This document shows positions 2,482 through 56,964 of a stretch of DNA of 64,000 bases, in pieces. Both the position numbers and the translations under genes were made by a program. The notes beneath the pieces were generated by a model. It was not told where the DNA came from and ran no database searches. It saw nothing but the letters and a program-made list of their open reading frames with translations. The stretch lies in the NCBI GenBank assembly GCA_017961685.1, contig JAGCWW010000060.1, positions 53 through 64,052 of the forward strand, in the 5' to 3' direction. The number at the start of each line of letters is the position of its first letter. Positions within the stretch are counted from its first letter, which is position 1. Source of the DNA: Acholeplasmatales bacterium (GTDB lineage: Bacteria > Bacillota_I > Bacilli_A > Acholeplasmatales > JAEDCM01).

Positions 2482-3510
2482 ATGGAATTAGAAAACATTG
2501 AATTAGTCGCAACAGAAGAAATTGAAAAATGTGATGACTTAGATCAACTTAATGAAACTAGAGTTAAGTATCTAGGTAAAAAGGGCTTAATTCAAGGATT
2601 TATGAGCAAAATGCGTGATTTATCTAACGAGGAGCGTCCTAAGTTTGGAGCTTTAGTTAATAAGATAAAGGCAGCTATTGAAGAAAGAATTAAAATTGCT
2701 CAAGAAAAGTTAGAAGAAAAGAAGATTAATAAGAAACTAGAGAGTGAAGCAATTGATGTAACTCTACCTGGTTATAAGTTTAATACAGGTGTAATCCACC
2801 CATTAATGCAAACAATCGAAGAGATTGAAGATTTATTTATTGGTATGGGTTATGAAATTGCTGAGGGCCCAGAAGTTGAAGAAGATTTATATAACTTTGA
2901 ACTTCTAAACTTACCTAAGGATCACCCAGCAAGAGATATGCAAGATACTTTCTATATTAACCCTAATGTTTTGCTAAGAACTCATACTTCGCCAGTTCAA
3001 GCAAGAACTATGCAAGCTAAACAAGGTAAACCAATTAAGGTTATTTGCCCTGGTAAGGTTTATAGAAGAGATGATGATGATGCAACTCACTCACATCAAT
3101 TCATGCAAGTTGAAGGTTTAGTATTAGGTAAAGATATATCTTTAGCTGATTTAAAGGGTACTTTACTAGAAGTTGCTAAGAAAGTATTTGGTAATGAAAG
3201 AGAAATTAGACTACGTCCAAGTTTCTTCCCATTTACTGAACCAAGTGTAGAAGTAGATGTATCATGCTTTAAATGTAATGGTAAAGGATGTTCTATTTGT
3301 AAGAATTCAGGATGGATTGAAGTATTAGGTGCTGGTATGGTTAATAATAACGTGCTAAAGATGAATGGATATAATCCTGATGAAATCCAAGGCTTTGCCT
3401 TTGGTATTGGTGTTGAAAGATTCACAATGCTTAAATATGGTATAGAAGATATTAGAAACTTCTATTTAAATGATCAAAAATTCTTAAATCAATTCAAGGG
3501 GGTAAAATAA
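2482..3510 (+). CDS. pheS: Phenylalanine--tRNA ligase alpha subunit
   Basis: Full-length match to PheS pattern (class II motifs [33 protein letters not shown]). Preceded by the Phe T-box. Confidence 0.97.
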
Positions 3511-34457: not shown

Positions 34458-36076
34458 TCTATTCTTTCTATATTTTTACTACCATATTTCATGGATATAA
34501 AGTATATTAAAACTGTTGCTGCAATTATAATTACAAATGATAATAAATAAGCGATAACTAAGCCTAAATTTAAGAACTTAAGCATAAATATTAAACCTAC
34601 TAAAACACCTGAAATTAATATCGCAAATGCCATATTAATGAATACATTATGATTACCTCTTAAGGCATTAATTTCATCATCCCAAACTAGCTTTGGATTA
34701 ACTGTATCTAAATATACTCCAAGGAAGGAAATAAATACCACAGATATTAAACTTAAAACTAAATATAATATTGTATTTAATATTCCTAAATTAAAAATTA
34801 TTGAGAATACTAAGATGTATAAGAATAAGCCAATATAACTAACTATAATACTACAAAATGCTTTTATAATTATTTGTGATTTATAAGATATTGGAACTAA
34901 TTTCATGTAGAAGAAGCTTGATCCTTCACGTGAAATAGAACTTGATGAAATAGAGTTAACGGCGGTAATTAAAATAGATAAAATAATTATACCAATGATA
35001 AATGATAGATGAACTGTATAGTTATTATCATAATATAAATCTAAGATCTTTTTAAGGTTACCTGTTCTATCATATATAAAGGCTACCAAAGCGATTAAAA
35101 ACGGCCAAATAAAGTTTATTATAACACAATTAGAGAAGAACGCAGGTGTCTTAAATAAAAGCTTAAATTCCTTCTTTAAATAACTTACATTCTTACTAGA
35201 TTTTTTATAAACTATTTCTTTTTTCTTATCCTTCTTATAATTAGATTGATTTAATCCTCTAAAATATAATAATTTCGCAAATAGATAGAATATGCCAATA
35301 CTTCCAAGTGTAATTAATAAATAAAATACAATTGAAATAGGATTAGACATACTATCAGTTAAGAAATAGACATTAGGGAAGATATATTTACATACTTCCA
35401 TAAAATTAGAATTAACTAGATTAAGTGTGAAATCTTCTAAATCAAAGTTTGTTAAGAAAATGGCCATAAGTAGTATTCCAACTACAGCTAATATTAATAA
35501 TAAACTACTAAATTTAGAAACTAAATCTTTATTTGTTATTTTTCTTGTTAGAAACATAAATACCATGCATATAATTGAACAATATACGAGTGGTAAAACA
35601 GGAAGTGAAACTAACGCTATTAAAATAATAAATAACGCATATATATCAAGTTTACCTCCTATATAAAAACCAATGAGTGAACTCAATATTAAGATGAGTT
35701 CTATAAAATTCTCATTAATAAGAGTATTAAAGAATTTTGCGCCTATTATTTGATGTTCCTTAAAAGGCATCGGTAGAATTCTTTCTATATCAGAAGAAAA
35801 GTAGAAGACATTAAATATAACATTTATACTAAAGACGAAGGAGAATATGCTTATGGCATAAAGTAAGAAGTTTATTCCTTCATTTAAATGATTATTTTCA
35901 ACTAAACTTACAGTCATTCCATAAGATATAATACCTATCATAAAAGCGGTTGGAATGAAGATAATGAGCATTGTGACAATGGCCATTACCATATAAAAGA
36001 CTTTTGATTTTTTCTTTTCAAAGGCAATCATTTCAAAGTTTTTTAGAAAAACTTTTAATAATTTAATTGTTTTCAT
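34454..36076 (-). CDS. Polytopic ABC exporter permease (putative-ABC-exporter type)
   Basis: 540 aa with more than 10 hydrophobic segments. Start overlaps the stop of the upstream ATPase gene by 14 nt. Confidence 0.6.
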   Translation of the reverse strand: MKTIKLLKVFLKNFEMIAFEKKKSKVFYMVMAIVTMLIIFIPTAFMIGIISYGMTVSLVENNHLNEGINFLLYAISIFSFVFSINVIFNVFYFSSDIERILPMPFKEHQIIGAKFFNTLINENFIELILILSSLIGFYIGGKLDIYALFIILIALVSLPVLPLVYCSIICMVFMFLTRKITNKDLVSKFSSLLLILAVVGILLMAIFLTNFDLEDFTLNLVNSNFMEVCKYIFPNVYFLTDSMSNPISIVFYLLITLGSIGIFYLFAKLLYFRGLNQSNYKKDKKKEIVYKKSSKNVSYLKKEFKLLFKTPAFFSNCVIINFIWPFLIALVAFIYDRTGNLKKILDLYYDNNYTVHLSFIIGIIILSILITAVNSISSSSISREGSSFFYMKLVPISYKSQIIIKAFCSIIVSYIGLFLYILVFSIIFNLGILNTILYLVLSLISVVFISFLGVYLDTVNPKLVWDDEINALRGNHNVFINMAFAILISGVLVGLIFMLKFLNLGLVIAYLLSFVIIIAATVLIYFISMKYGSKNIERIE

Positions 36077-36785
36077 CGATTAAAGTAATATAAATCTCCT
36101 CTAAAGATTTATCTGGATGCATCTCTTTTAATTTATCAAGAGTTCCATCATATATCTTTTTACCCTTATAAATAATAATTACCTTATCACATAACTTTTC
36201 CGCAATTTCTAGTATGTGAGTTGAAAAGAAGACGGTCTTATTTTTCTTCGCATGTTCCTTCATCATTTCTTTTAATGTATAACTACTTTTTGGATCTAGA
36301 CCAACTGTTGGTTCATCTAGAATCCATACATCTGGTTCATGAATAAGCTGGGAGATGATCATTAATTTTTGTCTCATACCATGAGAATAGCTAAGCATTG
36401 GTTTAGTTAAGGCATCAGTTAGTTCAAACATATTAGAATATTTTTCAATACGCTCTTTTCTATCCTCTAAGCTTACTTCATAAATATCTGCGACAAAGTT
36501 TAAATAATCGATTCCTTTTAAACGCAAAAAAGCATCAGGACTATCTGATATATAGCCTATTGATGCTTTTATTTTTAATGGTTCTTTATCAATATCTAGA
36601 TTATTGACAATAATTTGCCCACTATTTTTCTTAATAATACCACTAATTAATTTCATTGTTGTGGTTTTACCACTACCATTAGGCCCAATAAACCCTACTA
36701 TTTCACCTTGATTAACTTCAAAGCTTAAATCATCTACAGCAACAAAATCATTATATTTTTTAGTGACATTATTAAACTTTATCAT
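36063..36785 (-). CDS. ABC transporter ATP-binding protein (ABC-2 subfamily)
   Basis: Walker A GPNGSGKTT, signature YSHGMRQK, Walker B ILDEPTVGLD. Confidence 0.9.
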   Translation of the reverse strand: MIKFNNVTKKYNDFVAVDDLSFEVNQGEIVGFIGPNGSGKTTTMKLISGIIKKNSGQIIVNNLDIDKEPLKIKASIGYISDSPDAFLRLKGIDYLNFVADIYEVSLEDRKERIEKYSNMFELTDALTKPMLSYSHGMRQKLMIISQLIHEPDVWILDEPTVGLDPKSSYTLKEMMKEHAKKNKTVFFSTHILEIAEKLCDKVIIIYKGKKIYDGTLDKLKEMHPDKSLEEIYITLIDENN

Positions 36786-36795
36786 ATTTTCTCCT

Positions 36796-38682
36796 TTATG
36801 CTTTATCTTTATAACTATTGATTACTTCAACTGGATCTTTATTATCGTTATAAACTTTAACTAATTCAGTAAAGTGTTTCTTAAATACAGCAATAACATT
36901 TGGATCGAAGTGGTTAATATCATTACAAATTGTGTTATATACCTTTTCAGCAGGCCAAGCTGGTTTATATGGTCTTGGACTCATTAAGGCATCAAATACA
37001 TCCGCAATAGCGATAATTCTACCTAATAAATCAATTTGTGTACCACGTTTTTTCTTATAACCCTTACCATCCCATCTTTCATGGTGATCTTGAATCATTA
37101 CTTTAGCATAACGCATGATATCACCTGGACAGTCTTTAATTAAATCAGTACCATAATCAACATGTTTCTTGATTTCTTCGTATTCTGCTTCAGTTAAACC
37201 AGCATTCTTTTCCAAGATAGATTTATCGATATAGATTTTACCTACATCGTGCATCATGGAAGCAACGCTTATACGTTCAATTTTCTTTTCTGTGAAGCCC
37301 CAGAAAGGATCGGCGCATAATATACGCATATATTCACTTACACGTTGTACGTGATTTGCAGTATGCTTACTAGTTCTATCAGTAACAACGGCTAAAGTCT
37401 TAATCATTTCTCTTTGACTCTTTAAGAAGTCTTCATTTAGTGTAATATTAATTAAAGCTACACCAATGTTATTTGTCATAATCTTAATGATTTCATCTAG
37501 TGTTTCATTCATTGTAAGCTTAGCATCGATTATAACAAAATAAATTAATTTCATTTGTTTAGTTACATTATCTTTTGTATAAACAGAAATAATTGTATCA
37601 TGCATCTCACGTTCAAATGTATGAACGAAGACGTTTTTCTCTTTTTCTTTCTTATATTTTTGTTTTTCAACAGTATTATCAAATACTAATTCACCGTTTT
37701 CGTTATATTCATTTATAATTTCTTTTTCATAGTATAGTGGTAAATTAAGTTCTTTACTATTTGATTCACCAGGCTTTGCATTTTCTACTGCACATGGAAC
37801 TTGAATATCAAGAGAATATTGTGTTTTAATTGCTGGAATCATTTCATATGTTCCATTTTCATTTTTAGCACCATAACACTTAAATGTTCCATCAAAGCTC
37901 TTACCAATATACACTTTTAGTGGATCTAGAGGAGTTTCTAGGAAGTTAGAACATACATCAATACAAGTAGTTCTAATTGCATCATCTAAATCAACAATCT
38001 TAGTTGCAGTAAATAAATCTAGAGAAGATTTAATTAATGAATTCATAACATCTGCTCTATTATCAATTGTCTTAGTTTGTTCCATATTAACTAATTGCAT
38101 ATTAGTTGTCTTATCAGATAACTTATTAAAGATAATAGCAAATATGAATAGAATCGCAATATTTGGAACTAAAATCTTAAGTAACTTAGCTACAAATCTT
38201 AGATTTAATCCTTCATCTGGCCAAGTTGGATAAGATTTAAAGATGAATGCTGTAAATATTACAGCTAATATGAAACATAATATTGTACCTAATTCTGAAA
38301 ACTTAGTAAGTTTCTTATCAATAAATAATTGTGCTGCAAGAGGTGGTAATACAAATATTAACATAAAATCAAACTGCGTACATACACAAACACCCATCAT
38401 CGCAATTAATGCATATGATATGATGATATATGCCATAGGTTTTTTATTGATCTTAAATATTACAGTTACCGCTCCAAGTATAAATAGTGGCGCACCAACA
38501 GCATATAAGGCAATCGCAATAACTGTTGGATCTTTAACCGTAGCATAATTATATTCTAATATATTTCCTTTTCCAGGGAAGTCGATTAATATTGCTAGTA
38601 AAAACATGAAAATGGCGCATATCATTACACCAAATCCAAGTATCTTATAAGCAGTATTATCACTGTCCTTATAATTTCTCAT
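36796..38682 (-). CDS. Membrane-bound HD-GYP-family phosphohydrolase with degenerate GYP (GYK) motif
   Basis: About 6 N-terminal TMs, a ~230-aa central domain, then HDVGKIYIDKSIL...HHERWDGKGYKKKRG...IADVFDALMSPRPYK. ATG 38682 behind GAGGTGA. Confidence 0.8.
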   Translation of the reverse strand: MRNYKDSDNTAYKILGFGVMICAIFMFLLAILIDFPGKGNILEYNYATVKDPTVIAIALYAVGAPLFILGAVTVIFKINKKPMAYIIISYALIAMMGVCVCTQFDFMLIFVLPPLAAQLFIDKKLTKFSELGTILCFILAVIFTAFIFKSYPTWPDEGLNLRFVAKLLKILVPNIAILFIFAIIFNKLSDKTTNMQLVNMEQTKTIDNRADVMNSLIKSSLDLFTATKIVDLDDAIRTTCIDVCSNFLETPLDPLKVYIGKSFDGTFKCYGAKNENGTYEMIPAIKTQYSLDIQVPCAVENAKPGESNSKELNLPLYYEKEIINEYNENGELVFDNTVEKQKYKKEKEKNVFVHTFEREMHDTIISVYTKDNVTKQMKLIYFVIIDAKLTMNETLDEIIKIMTNNIGVALINITLNEDFLKSQREMIKTLAVVTDRTSKHTANHVQRVSEYMRILCADPFWGFTEKKIERISVASMMHDVGKIYIDKSILEKNAGLTEAEYEEIKKHVDYGTDLIKDCPGDIMRYAKVMIQDHHERWDGKGYKKKRGTQIDLLGRIIAIADVFDALMSPRPYKPAWPAEKVYNTICNDINHFDPNVIAVFKKHFTELVKVYNDNKDPVEVINSYKDKA

Positions 38683-38700
38683 AAAAATCACCTCAAGTAA

Positions 38701-48630: not shown

Positions 48631-49665
48631 ATGAAGGAATTAATCGAACAAATTAAAAGTAAATACACAGGAGATAGAGAAAAAGATACTGAATATCTTC
48701 TAGAAGAAATGGATAAATATAGAGATAATATTCCTGTAATTAAAGAAATTACAAAGCTTTTATATGAATTATTACCTCAAGACTTAAAAAATAACTTTAT
48801 TAGTCAATTAAACCAAGGTAAGTTTGGTGAAAGACTAGGCGAAATAAGAGAATTCTTAGCAGCTAAGAACTATAAAGGTGCTATGAAGGTTATCGATATT
48901 ACAATGGATAAGATTGAACCAGTATTTGAAGATGAAAAGCATCTTTATATGACTTTCCATGATCCATTTGAAGCATATTTCTATGCAGTAACAAGAGATG
49001 ATAAAACTAAATTCATCAAGAATGCTAATTTAGATTACGGTACATATTATAAGTTTAAAGGTATCGCCTTATTAAACTTAAAGAGATATGATGAAGCTAT
49101 CGTTTCATTTAATGAATCATTAAAGTGGAATCCACTTGATTTTGAATGTATTTTTAATTATGCTGAAACATTATTCCAAATGGAAAAATATGAAGAATAT
49201 TTAGATTTAAATATGAAGACAATGAAGAAGGCATACACAAATTATGTAATTGCTCAATGTTATCATAATGTTGGTAAATATTACATGACTAAGAATACTG
49301 AAAAAGATGATAAGTTCGCATATATGTTAATTAGCTATTCCTTATCTTTCCAAGAAACAGAATACGCTTATAAGAATTTAAATACTATTTGTGAAAAATA
49401 TAAGTGGAAGAAAGAAATTGCTAAATCAGATGATGTATTTGAAGCTTTAAAGAAAAAGAAATTCCCAACAGCACCAGATGAGGATTTAATTAGATTATTA
49501 ATTCAAATCGCTAGAAGATTCATGGGTGTTCATGATGAATTCTCACTTCAAGTATTCAGATTAATTTATCATTTAACTCATGATGAAATTACTTACCAAT
49601 ACATTAAAACTGGTGAAAGAGTAATCGCTGAAAAGAAAGCAAAAGCTGAAGAAAATAAACAATAA
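48631..49665 (+). CDS. Cytoplasmic TPR-repeat protein
   Basis: TPR-like units, e.g. YYKFKGIALLNLKRYDEAIVSFNESLKWNP. Own extended -10 promoter (TGATATAAT) upstream and a terminator hairpin at 49666-49690 downstream. Confidence 0.55.
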   Translation: MKELIEQIKSKYTGDREKDTEYLLEEMDKYRDNIPVIKEITKLLYELLPQDLKNNFISQLNQGKFGERLGEIREFLAAKNYKGAMKVIDITMDKIEPVFEDEKHLYMTFHDPFEAYFYAVTRDDKTKFIKNANLDYGTYYKFKGIALLNLKRYDEAIVSFNESLKWNPLDFECIFNYAETLFQMEKYEEYLDLNMKTMKKAYTNYVIAQCYHNVGKYYMTKNTEKDDKFAYMLISYSLSFQETEYAYKNLNTICEKYKWKKEIAKSDDVFEALKKKKFPTAPDEDLIRLLIQIARRFMGVHDEFSLQVFRLIYHLTHDEITYQYIKTGERVIAEKKAKAEENKQ

Positions 49666-49744
49666 ACTTGGAATTTTTCCAAGTTTTTTATTTTATATTA
49701 TTATATATTTATGGTATAATTTATACGTATTATGGGGTGATTAT

Positions 49745-51616
49745 ATGGAAACAAAGAATAAGAAATTATTAACAAGTATAATATATTCGATTATTATTAC
49801 TCTTTTTATGATTTTAGTTATGGCAACAAATATGTTTAAAGGGTTAGATAACCTAACATATGACCATATATATGAAAAAGAAAATACTTATAGTGAAGAG
49901 ATAGTAATTGTAGGTATTGATGATAAAACATTATCTAACCTTGGTGCTTTTACACCAAGCTATAGATCTTATTTTGCGGATGTAATTGATAAAATTAATA
50001 CTTATAATCCAGCAGTAATAGGTGTCGATATATTATTTACGGGGGTAAATGTAGATAATCCTGAATATGACACAAAATTAACTACAGCCGCAACAAACAC
50101 AAAAAATATTGTCTTTGCAGCTGAATTTAAATCAGGTGATAAAATCGTTGATGATATGCATGAAAAAGATATCACATACACACTACCATATGATGAGTTG
50201 TATAATGAGATAGGGGATGAATCATTAGGATTTGTTAATGTTATATCTGATGGTGATAGTGTAGTTAGACATGCTAGAGTTAGTGCAAAACTAAACGATA
50301 CTTATTATTCATCATTTGGTGAACAAATTTATAAAAAATATGCAAATGAAATGGATTTAGATTATTCAGGTTATGTCGCTAATAGGGAATACTTAGTTAA
50401 CTATAATGGATATCCTGAACAAGGTTATGAAGTAGTATCTTTCTATGATGTTTATAACAACATTAACCTTTATAGTGATTTATTTGAAGATAAAATTGTT
50501 TTAATTGGCTGGTATGCAACAGGTAATGCATCTAAGGATAGAACCGATGAATATTACACTCCAATTGCTCATAAGACTCATATGTTTGGAGTAGAACTAC
50601 ATGCTAACGTGATAAATAATATTATGAATGATATGTTTGTACAAGATGCTGCTAAAACAGGTCAATATATTATAAATATAATCATAATGCTTGCTATAAT
50701 CTTTATCATTTCAAGATTTGGCTTTATGTGGGCTAGTATTACAGCTGCCGCATCCATTATATTTGAATTCTTGTTTGGTTTAATAATGTATAATGCCTTT
50801 GGTATATTCTATCCAACTACAGGAATAATGGTAGTTATTGCAATAGGCTATGTTGTAATAGTTGTCTATAACTATGTAAGAGAAAGATTAGAAAAGGGTG
50901 CTGTATTAAAGACATTTAAACAATATATGGCTCCACAAGTAGTAGAAGCTTTCTTAAAGGATAATAAACAATCATCTAACTTAGTAGGTGAAAGAAGAGA
51001 TGTAGCTTGTCTATTTGTTGATATTAGAGGATTTACTCGTATGAGTGAAACTTTAGTAGATCCAGTTAAAGTAGTTAAAATCTTAAATGATTATCTAGGT
51101 ATGACAACAAAACAAATCTTTGATAATGATGGTATGCTAGATAAGTTTATAGGTGATGCTTGTATGGCTATCTTTAACGCTCCATTTGATATTGAAGATT
51201 ATGAATTTAAAGCAATTAAAGCAGGTTTAGGTATTGTTAAATACGGTGAACCTATTGCTAAACAAGTATTTGAAGATTATGGAATTACTATTGGCTTTGG
51301 TGTTGGTGTAAACTGTGGTGAAGCAATTATTGGTAATATAGGTTGTGACTTTAGAAAAGACTATACAGGTATAGGTGATACAATTAATACCGCATCTAGA
51401 CTTGAAAGTAATGCTAAGGGCGGACAAGTAATTATTAGTGAAGAAACTTTAAATAGAGTTGATAGTAATGGTAAATATAAATTAAAGAATAGATTAATTG
51501 TTGAAGAAAATGGTTACTTAAACTTAAAAGGTAAAGCTAAACCAGTCTTAACATATAATGTTATCGGTATAAAGGAGGGAAACAATGAAGAAACTGTTAA
51601 TGATTCCAAGGATTAA
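49745..51616 (+). CDS. CHASE2-sensor class III nucleotidyl (predicted adenylyl) cyclase
   Basis: TM, then extracytoplasmic CHASE2-like IVGIDDKTLSNLG...VIGVDILF, then 3 TMs. Catalytic domain has the motifs FVDIRGFT, DKFIGDACMA, GVNCGEAIIGNIG and DYTGIGDTINTASRLE. Confidence 0.85.
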   Translation: METKNKKLLTSIIYSIIITLFMILVMATNMFKGLDNLTYDHIYEKENTYSEEIVIVGIDDKTLSNLGAFTPSYRSYFADVIDKINTYNPAVIGVDILFTGVNVDNPEYDTKLTTAATNTKNIVFAAEFKSGDKIVDDMHEKDITYTLPYDELYNEIGDESLGFVNVISDGDSVVRHARVSAKLNDTYYSSFGEQIYKKYANEMDLDYSGYVANREYLVNYNGYPEQGYEVVSFYDVYNNINLYSDLFEDKIVLIGWYATGNASKDRTDEYYTPIAHKTHMFGVELHANVINNIMNDMFVQDAAKTGQYIINIIIMLAIIFIISRFGFMWASITAAASIIFEFLFGLIMYNAFGIFYPTTGIMVVIAIGYVVIVVYNYVRERLEKGAVLKTFKQYMAPQVVEAFLKDNKQSSNLVGERRDVACLFVDIRGFTRMSETLVDPVKVVKILNDYLGMTTKQIFDNDGMLDKFIGDACMAIFNAPFDIEDYEFKAIKAGLGIVKYGEPIAKQVFEDYGITIGFGVGVNCGEAIIGNIGCDFRKDYTGIGDTINTASRLESNAKGGQVIISEETLNRVDSNGKYKLKNRLIVEENGYLNLKGKAKPVLTYNVIGIKEGNNEETVNDSKD

Positions 51617-52349
51617 TGAACTAGAAGAAAATCTTAAACTAAGGGATAAACTTAACATTGGCTTTGAATATAATGACTTCTTTATCCCCGATTTATTAGA
51701 TGATGAAAAAGCATTAAAAGAAAGAGTTAATGCTTATAAAAAAGTAGGTGGATTTAATACAATCCATGGTGTATTCTTTGATATTTGTTTTAATTCTAGT
51801 GATAAATTAATTAAAGATGCATCTTATAAAAGAGCAAGACAAACACTAGATATTGCTAAAGAATTAGGTTGTAAAAAAATAGTATTTCACACTAACTATA
51901 TTATTGGATTTAATTCTAATGATTATAAAAAGATGTGGGTAGAAAGAAATGCTTTAGCTTATAAAGAATTCTTAAAAGAATATCAAGATATTGAAATTCT
52001 AATTGAAAACATGTTTGATAATAACGATATACTAATTAGAGAATTATTAGATATGGTTAATGATAAACGTTTTAGGATGTGCCTAGATATTGCACATGCT
52101 AATCTATCAGATGAATCTATAAGTGAATGGATTAAAAATTGTAAGAAATATGTATCACATATTCATATTAATGATAACTTTAAAGACGTTGACTCTCACC
52201 TTGCTATAGGCGATGGTAATATGGATTATGATTATATCATTTCAGAACTTAATAAGATGGATGATATATCGATTTTAATTGAAGTAAAAAATACCCCTGA
52301 CTTCATTAAATCTTATGATTATTTAATAAGTAGAGGATTAAAACTATGA
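51585..52349 (+). CDS. Xylose-isomerase-like TIM-barrel protein (sugar phosphate isomerase / AP-endonuclease-2 fold)
   Basis: KKIVFHTNY, ILIENMF, CLDIAHANL and HIHINDN resemble the metal-ligand strands of this fold. AAGGAGGG RBS lies inside the cyclase 3' end (32-nt overlap). Confidence 0.6.
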   Translation: MKKLLMIPRINELEENLKLRDKLNIGFEYNDFFIPDLLDDEKALKERVNAYKKVGGFNTIHGVFFDICFNSSDKLIKDASYKRARQTLDIAKELGCKKIVFHTNYIIGFNSNDYKKMWVERNALAYKEFLKEYQDIEILIENMFDNNDILIRELLDMVNDKRFRMCLDIAHANLSDESISEWIKNCKKYVSHIHINDNFKDVDSHLAIGDGNMDYDYIISELNKMDDISILIEVKNTPDFIKSYDYLISRGLKL

Positions 52350-53875
52350 TGTTAGAAAAGATATTAGAATTAGGTAAAAACATCGCTAAAGAAAATGATT
52401 ATAATAAACTTTTTGGTATATTCTTAAAAGGTACTACAGATATTGCTAATTGTGATGCAGGTACTTTATATATCTATAAAGAAAGAGTAGAAGATGGAGA
52501 GTTAAAAAAATATTTATGCTTTGCTTCAACTATCAATCATACTCTAAAACAATATGGTGGTTTGGAGGGGGAAAAATTAAACTTACCACCAGTAATCTTT
52601 AGTGATACTAATGCATCTAGTTATGCTGGTATTCATAGAGTAATCTTAAATGTAGATGATGTTTATAAAGATGATCACTCTATTTGGATGGGACCACGTA
52701 AATATGATTCTATTACAGGCTACCATACACAAAGTGTATTAGTAATACCTCTAATTGATAAAAAGGATGATTTAATTGGTGTCCTACAATTAATTAACTG
52801 TATGGATAAGGATAATAATGTTATTCCATTTAGTAAGGAAATAGAAAAGATAATTTTCTCACTTTCTAGTCAAGTAGCAATGATTTTATCAAATATGTTA
52901 CTAACTAATGACATGGAAGAATTATTAGATTCGGCAATCAATTCATTAGTTAACGCAATCGAAGCTAAAACACCATTTAATGCACTTCATACTAATACAG
53001 TTACAGGCTTATGTGATTTATTTGTTGATTACTTAAATAAAAATAGTAGTGAATATAAGTTTAGTAGTGATGAAAAAGATGTGCTTCATATGGCTGCTCA
53101 ACTTCATGATGTTGGTAAGATTGGTATTAATGATGATATCTTAAATAAACCAACAAGATTAGCAACTCGTATTGATTATATTAGAAGTAGATTTGAAAAT
53201 TTACGCTTACAACTTTTAGTTAATAAATATGAGAAAAATGATCCATCTATGGATAATCTAGTAACTGAATTAAACAGTGATTTAGAATTCATTGAAAATG
53301 TGAATAATGCGCCATTTATCGATGATGCGAAGATGGAAAGAATTAATGAATTATGTAATAAAAAGGTACTTGGTGTAAAGCTTTTAACAGATGAAGAAAT
53401 AGAAGACTTACATATTGTTAAAGGTACACTTACATCAAAAGAAAGAGAACATATTCAAGAACACGTTGTTAAAACAGTTAATATTCTAAAAGATGTTAAA
53501 TTTGGTAAGAAATATCATGATTCACTTATTATAGCTGGACAACACCATGAACTACTTGATGGTTCGGGTTATCCTAAACGCTTAAAGGGTGATGAATTAA
53601 ACACTCAAACAAGAATATTAACTATTATGGATATCTTTGATAGTTTAACAGCATCAGATAGACCATATAAAGCAACTATTCCTGTTGAAAAGGCTTATGG
53701 CATTTTATGTGCTATGGTTAATGAAGGAAAATTAGATCCAAAATTAGTTGGATACTTAAGAGGATTTATTGATGAATTACTAGCTAAATATGGTAATTTA
53801 GATGGTAAGATTGCTAAAACAGTTCTACAAATTAAAAAAGAAGAAAAAGAATTAAAAGAGAAAGAGAAGTTCTAA
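52346..53875 (+). CDS. GAF-domain HD-GYP phosphohydrolase with an insertion in the catalytic domain
   Basis: GAF (CDAGTLYIY...SVLVIPLIDKKDDLIGVLQLIN). HD-GYP (LHDVGKIGI...HHELLDGSGYPKRLKG...MDIFDSLTASDRPYK). ATGA overlap with the upstream gene. Confidence 0.85.
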   Translation: MMLEKILELGKNIAKENDYNKLFGIFLKGTTDIANCDAGTLYIYKERVEDGELKKYLCFASTINHTLKQYGGLEGEKLNLPPVIFSDTNASSYAGIHRVILNVDDVYKDDHSIWMGPRKYDSITGYHTQSVLVIPLIDKKDDLIGVLQLINCMDKDNNVIPFSKEIEKIIFSLSSQVAMILSNMLLTNDMEELLDSAINSLVNAIEAKTPFNALHTNTVTGLCDLFVDYLNKNSSEYKFSSDEKDVLHMAAQLHDVGKIGINDDILNKPTRLATRIDYIRSRFENLRLQLLVNKYEKNDPSMDNLVTELNSDLEFIENVNNAPFIDDAKMERINELCNKKVLGVKLLTDEEIEDLHIVKGTLTSKEREHIQEHVVKTVNILKDVKFGKKYHDSLIIAGQHHELLDGSGYPKRLKGDELNTQTRILTIMDIFDSLTASDRPYKATIPVEKAYGILCAMVNEGKLDPKLVGYLRGFIDELLAKYGNLDGKIAKTVLQIKKEEKELKEKEKF

Positions 53876-53876
53876 A

Positions 53877-54380
53877 ATGAAAAAAGATTTAAGAGATAAA
53901 GTATTTAGTATAATTCTACTAATCTTTTCTATAATTTATCCATTAATGCTTTTCTTTGATGTTTATGAATATAAGCATAAAGAAATTGATGGAGATACGA
54001 TTACAAAAGTAGTAGATAGATACAATTTAATAAATATAAAAGATATATCAACATTTATGTTAGTATTCTCACTAATATTTATTGTTTTATCTCTTACTGT
54101 AGCTATTTTTGCTATTTTAGAAATTAGGAAAAATAACTATTATTCGCTTAAATATAGAATTATCTTTTCAATATACACAGTAGTATCAGCAACATTTGGT
54201 TTTTATGCAAGTTTCTTCATATTAAGTATGTTATTTATGATAATTGCAGCACATATGTTCTTAATTTACTATGACATTAAAAGAAACAAAAGAAAGCTAT
54301 CAAATGCTCTAATTTATGCTATAACATATGTAATGTTTATGGTTATGATGATAATATCATTTGGAGCATTACCTAAATAA
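53877..54380 (+). CDS. Small polytopic membrane protein (4-5 TMs), unknown function
   Basis: Hydrophobic segments throughout. Starts 1 nt after the HD-GYP stop and is followed by a terminator hairpin at 54382-54407. Confidence 0.55.
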   Translation: MKKDLRDKVFSIILLIFSIIYPLMLFFDVYEYKHKEIDGDTITKVVDRYNLINIKDISTFMLVFSLIFIVLSLTVAIFAILEIRKNNYYSLKYRIIFSIYTVVSATFGFYASFFILSMLFMIIAAHMFLIYYDIKRNKRKLSNALIYAITYVMFMVMMIISFGALPK

Positions 54381-54381
54381 G

Positions 54382-54407
54382 AAAGCACTTGGTGCTTTTT
54401 TATTTTT
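54382..54407 (+). terminator. Terminator ending the cyclase operon
   Basis: AAAGCAC-ttg-GTGCTTT followed by a T-run. Confidence 0.6.
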
Positions 54408-54456
54408 ATTTACTATATTTCAAAAATATGTTATATTTAAAGCGTGGGGTGATTAT

Positions 54457-56964
54457 ATGAAGAAAAAAATAATATTATTTTCTTCAATTGGCGGAGCAGT
54501 GCTAATTGCTGCTATTGTTTTAATAATTTGTTTATGTCTTCCAAAAGGAAGTAAAGCGTATAGAACAATTAACGTTCATAGTGTTACTGGAACAGTTAAC
54601 GTTAAAAGAAAGAATGATACAATTAGTGCAACACAAAATATGAAACTTAAAAATGAAGATGTAGTTGAAGTAAAAGAAGCTTCATCAACAGTTTTAAAGC
54701 TTGATAGTGATAAGTTTATAATGGCTAAGGAGAATACAACATTTAGACTAATAGCTACAGGTAAAAAGAATAACACTAAAACAAGAATTGTTGTTGAAAA
54801 TGGTGGGGTAGTAGTTGAAGTTAAAGAAAAACTTAAACAAGATGAAGCATTTGAAATTGCCTCATCAAACTCTGTAATGGCTATTCGTGGTACACAAATA
54901 AGTTTTAATGTAAGTGTTGTTGAAAATAAGATTACTACAAGTGTAGCCGTACTTGATGGTGAAACTGAAATCATGTTATATAAGGATGAAAAATTAAGTA
55001 CAACAACTCTAATCAAGGATTTCAAATTAAGCTATACAACTGATTTAGATGATGTTGCTAATGATATTTCTAAACTTATTGATGAAGGAGAAAAACAACA
55101 AATAGCTGATGCTGACCTACAAACAATTTATAATGTTATGAAGGTTGCCTTAACAAGTGAAGAAATTGATGAAATCGTAGATGCAATCAACACATTTGAA
55201 AGAGATGACAAAAAGGTTAATGGTGTAATTAAATTTAGCTTTAGTGGAACTCCAGAGTATATGTCTGATCCAAAAGACTACATTGCTGTTGAAGATGCAT
55301 ATGTTTCAATTGTAGGTTTACAATACTTATATAGCCAAACTATAGATGGAGAATATGAAGAATTTGATTCGAATAATCCACTTGAAATTGGCACTTGGTA
55401 CTGTAAATTAATAGCTGGTAATGCTTATAGATCAGATCCACTTGAATTTACTATAGGTAAAAAGCAAATGGAATTAAATTATACATTGAGTCAAGTTGGC
55501 GCAAAATATGAAAATGAATCAAGTATTTTATTATCATTTAATGATGATGATTTCTTCAATAGTGAAGAAGCATTAGAAAGAGATGAACTTGGTTTATTAA
55601 AGTATTATGTAATTGCAACAAATGGCGATATGAGGGTATATATTGATGCTCAAAACAAGGAAGCAATCTTCCCAAGCGTTGAAGTAGAAGAAAACAAATA
55701 TGGACAATATTTCATGTTTGAATGTTACCTACCAGAATACTATGAAGTAACTAATGTTACTGATGAACCAGTATTAAAAGAACTTGAAAATTCATTTAAA
55801 GTTTCTGATTTAAGAGTAAGTGTTGAATATCAAGATAATATACCTTATTATGCCTATATTGATATGGTTGTTGAAAGACATATAGATAATCCAAACGTTA
55901 ATAGCATTATTTATTCAATTGAATATTCAAAAGATGATCCAGATAGAAAGAATACAACTGAATATGAATCTTATTCAGATGGAGATTTTATTAATATAAC
56001 TGTTTCTACAGGGCTAAACTATGAAGCTGGAGTAGTAATTGGTGATAGTAATACATTCTGTTTCTTCTTAGGAACTGGTTTAATTGATGAAGAAAGTATG
56101 ACTACGCAAGAAGGATATCTATTTACAACAGAAATATTTGAAATAGATTTAACACCATATTATGAAGATGCTGGTGATAATAGGCCAAAAGAAATTGATG
56201 CTGATGCAGCTGACAATTACTTTGTAACTATTAATGAAGATAATACATTCAATGTTTATATGGATTTACTTGCTGATGCTCCAATTTTGGAAACAAATAG
56301 AGAATTAGAATACTTAGTAGTTTATGATGAAATTGATACTAACCCAATAAATAATGAAATACTTCGTCCATATAAATTCTTAACTGGTACAGGTAGATAT
56401 GCTGTAATAGAAAATATTACATCACAATCTCTTAAGATTTATGGTGTATATTCATTATATGAAATTAAAGATGGTATTTATTATATATATTCAGGCACAA
56501 CTAATATTGATGATGGTGCAGCAGAAATTAATGTTGGTAATGTAGTAGCTTCTGTAAAATATCAAGAAAATGAGTATAATTATGTAGCAAATCTAATCGA
56601 TAGATATATTCTTGAAGAAAGCAAAGTATATGTATATGATGGATCAGGAAAATTACTAGATACATTCACTGAGGGAGATTATAGTGATTTCCAAGATGGA
56701 ATGGGTATGCGTTCATGTTTATCTGATGATCCAAATAATCAAGAATTCATTGTTAAAGCAACAATTAATACAATGATTTCAACACGTTATTGCTTAATAA
56801 TAACAGGATTAGAAGCATCAAATGATGGTAAAGTTGATAGTGAGTTAGAAACATCTATTAGAGAGTATGTAAAATCAGTTACTAATAATAAATTAACTAT
56901 TAAAGGTGATTTTATTGGCTCATATACTTATAGAGCAACTCAACTATTATTCTCTGATAACTAA
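54457..56964 (+). CDS. Membrane-anchored FecR-domain protein with ~640-aa uncharacterised extracytoplasmic region
   Basis: Signal-anchor KKKIILFSSIGGAVLIAAIVLIICLCL. FecR-like block VTGTVNVKRKNDTISATQNMKLKNEDVVEV...VLKLDSDKFIMAKENTTFRL...ENGGVVVEV...FEIASSNSVMAIRGTQISFNV. ATG 54457 behind GGGGTGA. Confidence 0.7.
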   Translation: MKKKIILFSSIGGAVLIAAIVLIICLCLPKGSKAYRTINVHSVTGTVNVKRKNDTISATQNMKLKNEDVVEVKEASSTVLKLDSDKFIMAKENTTFRLIATGKKNNTKTRIVVENGGVVVEVKEKLKQDEAFEIASSNSVMAIRGTQISFNVSVVENKITTSVAVLDGETEIMLYKDEKLSTTTLIKDFKLSYTTDLDDVANDISKLIDEGEKQQIADADLQTIYNVMKVALTSEEIDEIVDAINTFERDDKKVNGVIKFSFSGTPEYMSDPKDYIAVEDAYVSIVGLQYLYSQTIDGEYEEFDSNNPLEIGTWYCKLIAGNAYRSDPLEFTIGKKQMELNYTLSQVGAKYENESSILLSFNDDDFFNSEEALERDELGLLKYYVIATNGDMRVYIDAQNKEAIFPSVEVEENKYGQYFMFECYLPEYYEVTNVTDEPVLKELENSFKVSDLRVSVEYQDNIPYYAYIDMVVERHIDNPNVNSIIYSIEYSKDDPDRKNTTEYESYSDGDFINITVSTGLNYEAGVVIGDSNTFCFFLGTGLIDEESMTTQEGYLFTTEIFEIDLTPYYEDAGDNRPKEIDADAADNYFVTINEDNTFNVYMDLLADAPILETNRELEYLVVYDEIDTNPINNEILRPYKFLTGTGRYAVIENITSQSLKIYGVYSLYEIKDGIYYIYSGTTNIDDGAAEINVGNVVASVKYQENEYNYVANLIDRYILEESKVYVYDGSGKLLDTFTEGDYSDFQDGMGMRSCLSDDPNNQEFIVKATINTMISTRYCLIITGLEASNDGKVDSELETSIREYVKSVTNNKLTIKGDFIGSYTYRATQLLFSDN

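Follow-up and report, generated by a model that had tools for sequence, protein, structure and literature searches.

A conserved CHASE2 cyclase and TIM-barrel gene pair as a candidate cAMP-to-c-di-GMP signaling module in an Acholeplasmatales bacterium

A 64,000-nucleotide stretch of DNA from an Acholeplasmatales bacterium (GenBank assembly GCA_017961685.1, contig JAGCWW010000060.1, positions 53 to 64,052 of the forward strand; hereafter the window) contains four closely packed genes on the same strand, which encode a class III cyclase with a CHASE2 domain, a triosephosphate isomerase (TIM)-barrel protein of the Pfam family AP_endonuc_2, a GAF-HD-GYP protein and a small membrane protein (Table 1). 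An original prediction, made from the letters of the window, had read these genes as a self-contained and undescribed cyclic-nucleotide circuit. Its description of the layout was borne out. Direct reading of the sequence confirmed that the cyclase and TIM-barrel genes overlap by 32 nucleotides (nt), with an AGGAGG 8 nt before the TIM-barrel ATG at 51585; that the TIM-barrel and GAF-HD-GYP genes overlap by an ATGA at 52346; and that a single nucleotide, position 53876, separates the GAF-HD-GYP and membrane-protein genes. The terminator hairpins said to flank the unit are also present and stand out from shuffled controls, in a 7-kb region that holds 8 terminator-like sites against 1.2 expected, and Pfam profile searches returned every domain that had been named: CHASE2 (3e-44), Guanylate_cyc (4e-22), AP_endonuc_2 (2e-30), GAF (4e-7) and HD_5 (4e-27). 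The GC content of the genes is 0.22-0.29, against 0.284 for the window, and is therefore native. What changes most is the standing of the TIM-barrel protein, which had been left as an unexplained effector: it has residues that align with the metal ligands of an enzyme, endonuclease IV, and among the components of the module it is both the best conserved and the most novel.

The cyclase has the features of a membrane-bound sensor. Its CHASE2 domain occupies residues 19-317, and a hydropathy scan placed transmembrane (TM) segments at residues 8-26, 309-327, 337-355 and 360-378. This predicts that CHASE2 lies outside the cytoplasm, between the first segment and the cluster of three, and that the catalytic domain, from about residue 400, is cytoplasmic. 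Among solved structures, those of bacterial class III cyclases are the most similar to the catalytic domain, and the motifs earlier picked out in it (FVDIRGFT, DKFIGDACMA and DYTGIGD) are all there. P. aeruginosa CyaB (3r5g) and Spirulina CyaC (1wc0) have identical residues aligned with both metal-binding aspartates and with the transition-state Asn/Arg pair (FVDIRGFT, GDACMA and NTASR). The Lys of DKFIGD and the Thr of DYTGIGD likewise align with Lys and Thr in both enzymes, at positions where the guanylate cyclase Cya2 has Glu and Gly. Because all of these residues align with those of CyaB and CyaC, the assignment to the ATP-specific class IIIb adenylate cyclases, already proposed from the Lys/Thr pair, is a well-founded prediction, and the product is most likely 3',5'-cyclic AMP (cAMP).

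Judged by its sequence, the TIM-barrel protein is a distinct subfamily with a phosphoesterase-type metal center, because it keeps the ligands of endonuclease IV, its solved relatives are endonuclease IV-like, and all of its NCBIfam scores fall below cutoff. Nine residues bind metal in E. coli endonuclease IV, Nfo (H69, H109, E145, D179, H182, H216, D229, H231 and E261). In an alignment of 22 members of the TIM-barrel family, down to 40% identity, the invariant positions are H61, H102, E141, D168, H171, H192, H194, D197, D203, H205 and E233. A local hmmalign covered only the C-terminal half of Nfo, whereas MAFFT recovered eight of the nine ligands, mapping H109, E145, D179, H182, H216, D229, H231 and E261 of the MG1655 protein onto H102, E141, D168, H171, H194, D203, H205 and E233. 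MAFFT misaligned Nfo H69; the ninth ligand is probably H61, which HMMER pairs with the equivalent His in both MJ1311 and TTHB071. A profile search of the Protein Data Bank (PDB) returned MJ1311 (8e-25), TTHB071 and endonuclease IV chains, with sugar epimerases at only about 1e-3, and an AlphaFold2 model (predicted local distance difference test score, 95) is closest to the structures of TTHB071 and MJ1311.

The protein is nevertheless neither of the best-known enzymes that it resembles. It shares the fold and the ligand set of Nfo (eight aligned, the ninth probable) but is shorter (254 versus 285 residues), has no DNA-repair context and scores far below the Nfo models (28.8 bits against a cutoff of 129.65 for TIGR00587, 31.9 against 244 for NF002198). 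Its best NCBIfam match, at 41.7 bits against a cutoff of 105, is CbiR (NF041277), an oxygen-sensitive phosphodiesterase of the AP_endonuc_2 superfamily that hydrolyzes a nucleotide-type phosphodiester in a small molecule. The superfamily is shared, but we rejected an identity with CbiR proper, given the subthreshold score and the lack of cobamide genes among the most frequent neighbor clusters of the 80 loci described below. The database annotation as a sugar phosphate isomerase/epimerase was also rejected, since the corresponding NCBIfam models gave 18-33 bits against cutoffs of 254-465 and the epimerases in the PDB matched so poorly. Unlike Nfo and CbiR, the TIM-barrel protein always sits among genes for signaling by cyclic nucleoside monophosphates (cNMPs) or cyclic di-GMP (c-di-GMP). 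Our literature search for an enzyme of the TIM-barrel or AP_endonuc_2 type with a link to cyclic nucleotides found none, and a search for MJ1311 gave no functional data.

Gene neighborhoods show this association clearly. When one genome per species was scanned, at least 560 genomes proved to contain a relative of the TIM-barrel protein; 372 representative clusters score at E<=1e-30. The best 80 loci were fetched and analyzed by tblastn and by clustering of open reading frames (ORFs), with neighboring domains assigned by Pfam. A cyclase gene lies directly upstream in 55 of the 75 loci that could be assessed because they extend far enough upstream, which come from Acholeplasmatales, Lachnospiraceae and Oscillospiraceae; cyclase and TIM-barrel genes are adjacent in 57 of 64 pairs, at a median gap of 9 nt and often overlapping. 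In 22/68 assessable loci a GAF-HD-GYP gene comes next or is fused, and in 19 of the 44 that were fully assessable the cluster includes a FecR-domain gene. The third partner varies, but every one is either a c-di-GMP enzyme or a receptor for cNMPs: GAF-HD-GYP, GGDEF, cNMP_binding or cNMP_binding-SpoIIE. Besides the order seen in the window (cyclase, TIM barrel, GAF-HD-GYP, FecR), four others recur: FecR, cNMP_binding-SpoIIE, cyclase, TIM barrel, RsbW-like kinase, STAS and GGDEF; cNMP_binding, cyclase and TIM barrel, in Roseburia and Agathobacter; Fic, cyclase and TIM barrel; and TIM barrel followed by GAF-HD-GYP, with the cyclase elsewhere. The gene set had been put forward as a unit to be sought in relatives. 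The adjacency of cyclase and TIM barrel held, as did the frequent presence of GAF-HD-GYP, but the membrane protein recurs only in the closest relative. The conserved core is therefore the cyclase and the TIM barrel; GAF-HD-GYP is a frequent accessory, FecR belongs to the module and the membrane protein does not.

Even "orphan" TIM-barrel genes adjoin genes for cyclic-nucleotide proteins. In the cultured Anaeroplasma bactoclasticum ATCC 27112 (L039 6002-7653, minus strand), genes for a 162-residue cNMP_binding protein and an RCK/TrkA_N channel-like protein are divergent from the TIM-barrel gene. At two Lachnospiraceae loci (L044 3568-3882 and L032) a gene for a cREC_REC "cyclic-phosphate processing receiver domain" (PF20274, 8e-21) directly precedes it, in a region that also holds HTH and sigma-factor-like genes and has the look of a mobile element. 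Four loci from Lachnospiraceae/Clostridia (L014, L015, L016 and L019) have two copies of GAF-HD-GYP, one fused to the TIM barrel downstream of the cyclase and one free upstream of it, about -3600 to -2100 relative to the TIM-barrel gene.

Independently of gene order, gene fusions link the TIM barrel with signaling by cNMPs and c-di-GMP. Fusions of the form TIM+GAF+HD-GYP occur in 6 of the 80 loci and in 16 of the best 120 GAF-HD-GYP clusters, and TIM+GAF+GGDEF and TIM+class III cyclase (Guanylate_cyc) fusions are found as well. Two of the cyclase fusions, P0454 (L099 980-2827) and P0482 (L100 834-2600), are each preceded by a small cNMP_binding gene. In the cyclase domains of P0454, P0471 and P0482 the Lys/Thr pair is replaced by Met/Gly or Glu/Gly, and these enzymes may therefore make cGMP or another cNMP.

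CHASE2-cyclase homologues number 4,516 at E<=1e-10. Cyclase homologues at 37-40% identity were looked up for gene context, which was either cyclase, TIM barrel, GAF-HD-GYP and FecR; or cyclase and TIM barrel with GGDEF and FecR genes upstream; or FecR and TIM barrel a few kilobases from a divergent pair of GAF-GGDEF and cyclase genes; or cyclase, HD-GYP and FecR with no TIM barrel. In one lineage, however, the place of the TIM barrel is taken by a 239-residue protein of the metallo-beta-lactamase (MBL) fold (motif THTHSDH), whose gene overlaps the cyclase stop codon and is followed by one for GAF-GGDEF. This protein matches the Pfam family Apyc1 (a precomputed match) and PDB entry 7t28 (2e-6). 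A metagenome scan yielded a second lineage, with an MBL protein 43% identical to the first, in which an MBL+GAF+GGDEF fusion directly follows a CHASE2 cyclase and two FecR genes. The MBL and TIM-barrel proteins never occur together in the loci examined. Experiments have established Apyc1 and its B. subtilis relatives YhfI and MBL-PDE as cNMP phosphodiesterases; they have an HxHxDH site. Beside homologous CHASE2 cyclases, proteins of this type take exactly the operon slot, and exactly the position in fusions (X-GAF-GGDEF), that the TIM barrel has elsewhere, but their fold is unrelated to the TIM barrel, so the analogy is one of displacement and not of homology. We infer that the operon slot, like the first position of an X-GAF-output fusion, can hold either the TIM barrel or a bona fide cNMP phosphodiesterase fold. 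That an MBL phosphodiesterase fold takes its slot is our main argument for the TIM barrel as the phosphodiesterase of the circuit.

The third protein of the window is predicted, from its sequence and by analogy, to be a c-di-GMP phosphodiesterase gated by cAMP. Its HD-GYP residues (H215, H254-D255, H373, H400-H401-E402, G406, G408-Y409-P410 and D429, including the motif HHELLDGSGYP) are invariant in 19 homologues. The best match in both sequence and fold is PmGH (4mcw; fold 1e-18), which has the same GAF-HD-GYP architecture, and the HD-GYP fold also matches DvhD bound to c-di-GMP. The GAF domain had been taken for a cNMP-binding type, and indeed its solved relatives all bind cNMPs: PDE5, PDE2, PDE6, PDE10 and CyaB2, with Lcd1 found by fold. 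In a sister GAF-GGDEF protein the GAF domain matches CyaB2 at 2e-23 and Lcd1 at 7e-10. An insertion of about 85 residues (approximately 273-355), for which three helices are predicted with high confidence, separates the HD part from the HHE...GYP part; all 31 of the operon-linked homologues that were examined have it, and PmGH and V-cGAP3 lack it.

There are precedents for such control. Tlr0485 of Thermosynechococcus vulcanus is a GAF-HD-GYP protein whose hydrolysis of c-di-GMP depends on cAMP; Lcd1 of Leptospira is a cAMP-dependent GAF-GGDEF protein, and Bd1971 of Bdellovibrio is a cAMP-sensing cNMP-EAL protein (PMC8846402). In view of these, and since sister operons have GGDEF proteins at the corresponding place, the slot is best read as that of a cAMP-controlled c-di-GMP enzyme, not of a cAMP phosphodiesterase, and the earlier suggestion that the HD-GYP domain might degrade the cNMP is disfavored. 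With Tlr0485 and PmGH the window protein shares the order GAF then HD-GYP, full catalytic motifs and a GAF domain of the cNMP type; it differs in the insertion, and in its operon link to the TIM barrel (in relatives, its fusion) and to its predicted cognate cyclase. Lcd1 and Bd1971 follow the same logic, in which an N-terminal cNMP sensor lets cAMP control a c-di-GMP enzyme, and sister operons do carry GAF-GGDEF; the output domain of those two is not HD-GYP, however, and a cyclase is not reported as operon-linked.

A second HD-GYP protein is encoded elsewhere in the window (36796-38691, minus strand, 631 residues; HD_5 1e-21 at residues 440-599). Its N-terminal 440 residues have no assigned function, and its neighbors on the two sides are an ABC ATPase gene (36063-36785) and a 540-codon ORF with no family match. 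The presence of two HD-GYP genes in 64 kb suggests that the organism uses c-di-GMP or a related signal.

The module also extends past the four genes. A FecR-domain gene just beyond the downstream terminator is present in every cyclase-centered locus with enough flanking sequence; the protein has one TM segment, at its N terminus, and a large portion outside the cytoplasm (TM scan), and it is a conserved partner and likely a co-sensor of the CHASE2 cyclase. A gene for a TPR-repeat protein lies immediately upstream of the cyclase unit. Both fall outside the interval that the original prediction covered, and the unit was thus not self-contained. The TPR protein, with weak Pfam matches of about 1e-5, is conserved in the closest relative, L003, only. 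The same is true of the 167-residue membrane protein, which matches no family in Pfam, NCBIfam or PADLOC and whose one homologue, in L003, is 34% identical. Both were therefore dropped as conserved members.

Nor is the circuit as a whole undescribed. Mo et al. (2022, PMC9239204) report CHASE2 in all adenylate cyclases of Campylobacterota, most of which cluster with genes for a cAMP-hydrolyzing phosphodiesterase, a FecR-domain protein and a TPR protein; that cluster is described from synteny. The cyclase, FecR and TPR kinds are found in the window too, and the phosphodiesterase member would be the TIM barrel and/or HD-GYP. The hosts differ, being here low-GC Firmicutes/Mollicutes-like gut bacteria, as does the presence of an endonuclease IV-like TIM barrel in the phosphodiesterase slot and of an added GAF-HD-GYP protein. 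With cAMP-gated GAF-HD-GYP proteins also on record, the circuit is largely of known kinds, a CHASE2-cyclase cluster joined to cAMP-gated c-di-GMP turnover; its new part is the widespread TIM-barrel family.

We lean, somewhat beyond even confidence, toward reading the locus as a module that converts a cAMP signal into a c-di-GMP signal and has the TIM barrel as its own cAMP phosphodiesterase. An extracytoplasmic cue would be sensed by CHASE2, probably together with the membrane-anchored FecR-domain protein, and would activate the class IIIb cyclase domain to make 3',5'-cAMP. Binding of cAMP to the GAF domain of GAF-HD-GYP would then switch on hydrolysis of c-di-GMP, as in Tlr0485, and the translationally coupled TIM barrel, with its putative multinuclear metal center, would hydrolyze cAMP and so reset the signal.

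Several points weigh against this reading. The displacement argument draws on two MBL lineages only, and the neighborhood counts, taken from the 80 best matches of at least 560, are biased toward relatives of the query. We know of no member of the TIM-barrel superfamily that hydrolyzes a cyclic nucleotide, and the superfamily also contains isomerases and epimerases. Some TIM-barrel genes pair with GAF-HD-GYP only, with no adjacent cyclase; at one locus (L088) cyclase, HD-GYP and FecR follow one another with neither TIM barrel nor MBL; and in every fusion the TIM barrel is N-terminal, the usual place of sensor domains. The GAF domain of the window lacks a clean NKFDE motif. Finally, tblastn with two GGDEF queries and an Rfam search found no GGDEF gene and no c-di-GMP riboswitch within the 64-kb window; the lack of GGDEF had been noted from the start and still holds, but 64 kb says little about the genome.

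Some of these points would fit a TIM barrel that acts on another nucleotide, for example pGpG or another linear dinucleotide from HD-GYP, a 2',3'-cNMP or pyrophosphate. An endonuclease IV-type site cleaves phosphodiesters generally, the TIM barrel is fused or adjacent to GAF-HD-GYP, sometimes without a nearby cyclase, and the "cyclic-phosphate processing" protein encoded directly before it in L044 and L032 would be in keeping with such a substrate. We nevertheless consider this unlikely: the association of the TIM barrel with the cyclase (55/75) is closer than that with HD-GYP (22/68), the TIM barrel also occurs in modules with just a cyclase and a cNMP-binding protein, and it is fused to GGDEF synthases and cyclase domains, which yield no pGpG. 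Moreover, what replaces it is an MBL phosphodiesterase of the cNMP type. That a true phosphodiesterase fold takes the slot in sister operons also speaks against a sensory or regulatory TIM barrel, such as a metal or phosphosugar sensor that controls the cyclase and the GAF enzymes. Such a role would suit the N-terminal position in all fusions and the isomerase/epimerase annotation in databases, but nine endonuclease IV-type metal positions are invariant throughout the family, which points to catalysis, and every NCBIfam isomerase/epimerase model falls far below cutoff; we find it improbable.

We give equally little credence to the proposal that GAF-HD-GYP is itself the cAMP phosphodiesterase, like the eukaryotic GAF phosphodiesterases, and that the operon has no connection with c-di-GMP. 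Its GAF domain is indeed most similar to those of PDE5, PDE2 and PDE6, the window has neither a GGDEF gene nor a c-di-GMP riboswitch, and L088 does without a TIM barrel. Against this, sister operons have GAF-GGDEF or another GGDEF protein in the slot, the HD-GYP motifs and fold match c-di-GMP-specific PmGH and c-di-GMP-bound DvhD, and cAMP-dependent hydrolysis of c-di-GMP is the activity of the characterized Tlr0485. A role in defense, as a Pycsar-like anti-phage system in which a cyclic nucleotide made on infection acts through the membrane protein, was rejected and seems to us extremely improbable. PADLOC PycC models do match the catalytic domain, the operon includes a small protein with four TM segments, and an Apyc1-like protein occurs in sister operons. 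However, the PycC matches reflect generic class III homology and no other gene, and hence no effector, matches a PADLOC defense model; ATP is the substrate predicted from the Lys/Thr pair; the membrane protein lacks conservation; the genes are native in GC content; and CHASE2 and FecR sensors together with c-di-GMP enzymes indicate environmental signaling.

The favored reading, in which the TIM barrel ends the cAMP signal, would have consequences beyond this locus. Known cNMP phosphodiesterases belong to the HD (class I), metallo-beta-lactamase (class II) and calcineurin-like (class III) types. The broader possibility is that the TIM-barrel family founds a new structural class of 3',5'-cNMP phosphodiesterase, a dedicated cAMP terminator of CHASE2-cyclase circuits in many gut Firmicutes/Mollicutes-like bacteria, its fused forms being regulated by a GAF domain that gates c-di-GMP turnover; this we hold tentatively, at slightly less than an even chance. 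If it is true, a new enzyme class would join the textbook list, hundreds of "sugar phosphate isomerase/epimerase" annotations would need correction, and the module would be a cAMP-to-c-di-GMP converter, compact and portable, with parts that recombine either as individual genes or in fused form. Signaling by cAMP in Firmicutes and uncultured gut Mollicutes-like bacteria is poorly understood, the shutting off of the signal especially.

Table 1. Genes and predicted signals at the cyclase locus (positions in the window; aa, amino acids)
Feature	Positions	Strand	Remarks
TPR-repeat protein gene, possible accessory partner	48631-49665	+	344 aa from ATG 48631; mechanical ORF from TTG 48610
Terminator-like hairpin and T-run, upstream boundary of the unit	49664-49686	+	-10.4 kcal/mol, z -3.9 versus shuffled controls
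Promoter-like TTTATA-17-TATAAT with extended TG, before the cyclase gene	49692-49720	+	consensus match only
CHASE2-cyclase gene	49745-51616	+	623 aa; ORF list and Pfam
AP_endonuc_2 TIM-barrel gene	51585-52349	+	254 aa; ORF list and Pfam
GAF-HD-GYP gene	52346-53875	+	509 aa; ORF list and Pfam
Membrane-protein gene	53877-54380	+	167 aa; 4 TM segments by TM scan
Terminator-like hairpin and T-run, end of the four-gene transcription unit	54375-54405	+	-13.2 kcal/mol, z -5.2 versus shuffled controls
Promoter-like TTTACT-17-TATATT with TG, before the FecR-domain gene	54409-54437	+	consensus match only
FecR-domain protein gene	54457-56964	+	835 aa from ATG 54457; Pfam FecR 1e-5

The cyclase and FecR genes resemble each other in what precedes them. 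Each sits behind a terminator hairpin and a similar promoter-like site with an extended -10 element, and an identical 14-mer that spans the ribosome-binding site and the start codon, GGGGTGATTATATG, is found at 49734-49747 and 54446-54459. It precedes these two genes and occurs nowhere else in the window, where 0.02 chance matches are expected. This common leader may reflect co-regulation or the duplication of a leader. The FecR ORF as called mechanically starts at TTG 54361, within the preceding gene and the terminator; ATG 54457 is the plausible start.

Relatives, from gut and rumen samples, are metagenome-assembled genomes named as Acholeplasmatales or "bacterium." Genes for stable RNAs lie within positions 1-2440 of the window: a 23S rRNA gene, of which the 3' end is included, a 5S rRNA gene and one for a tRNA. 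A T-box leader at 2245-2440 precedes an ORF at 2482-3510.

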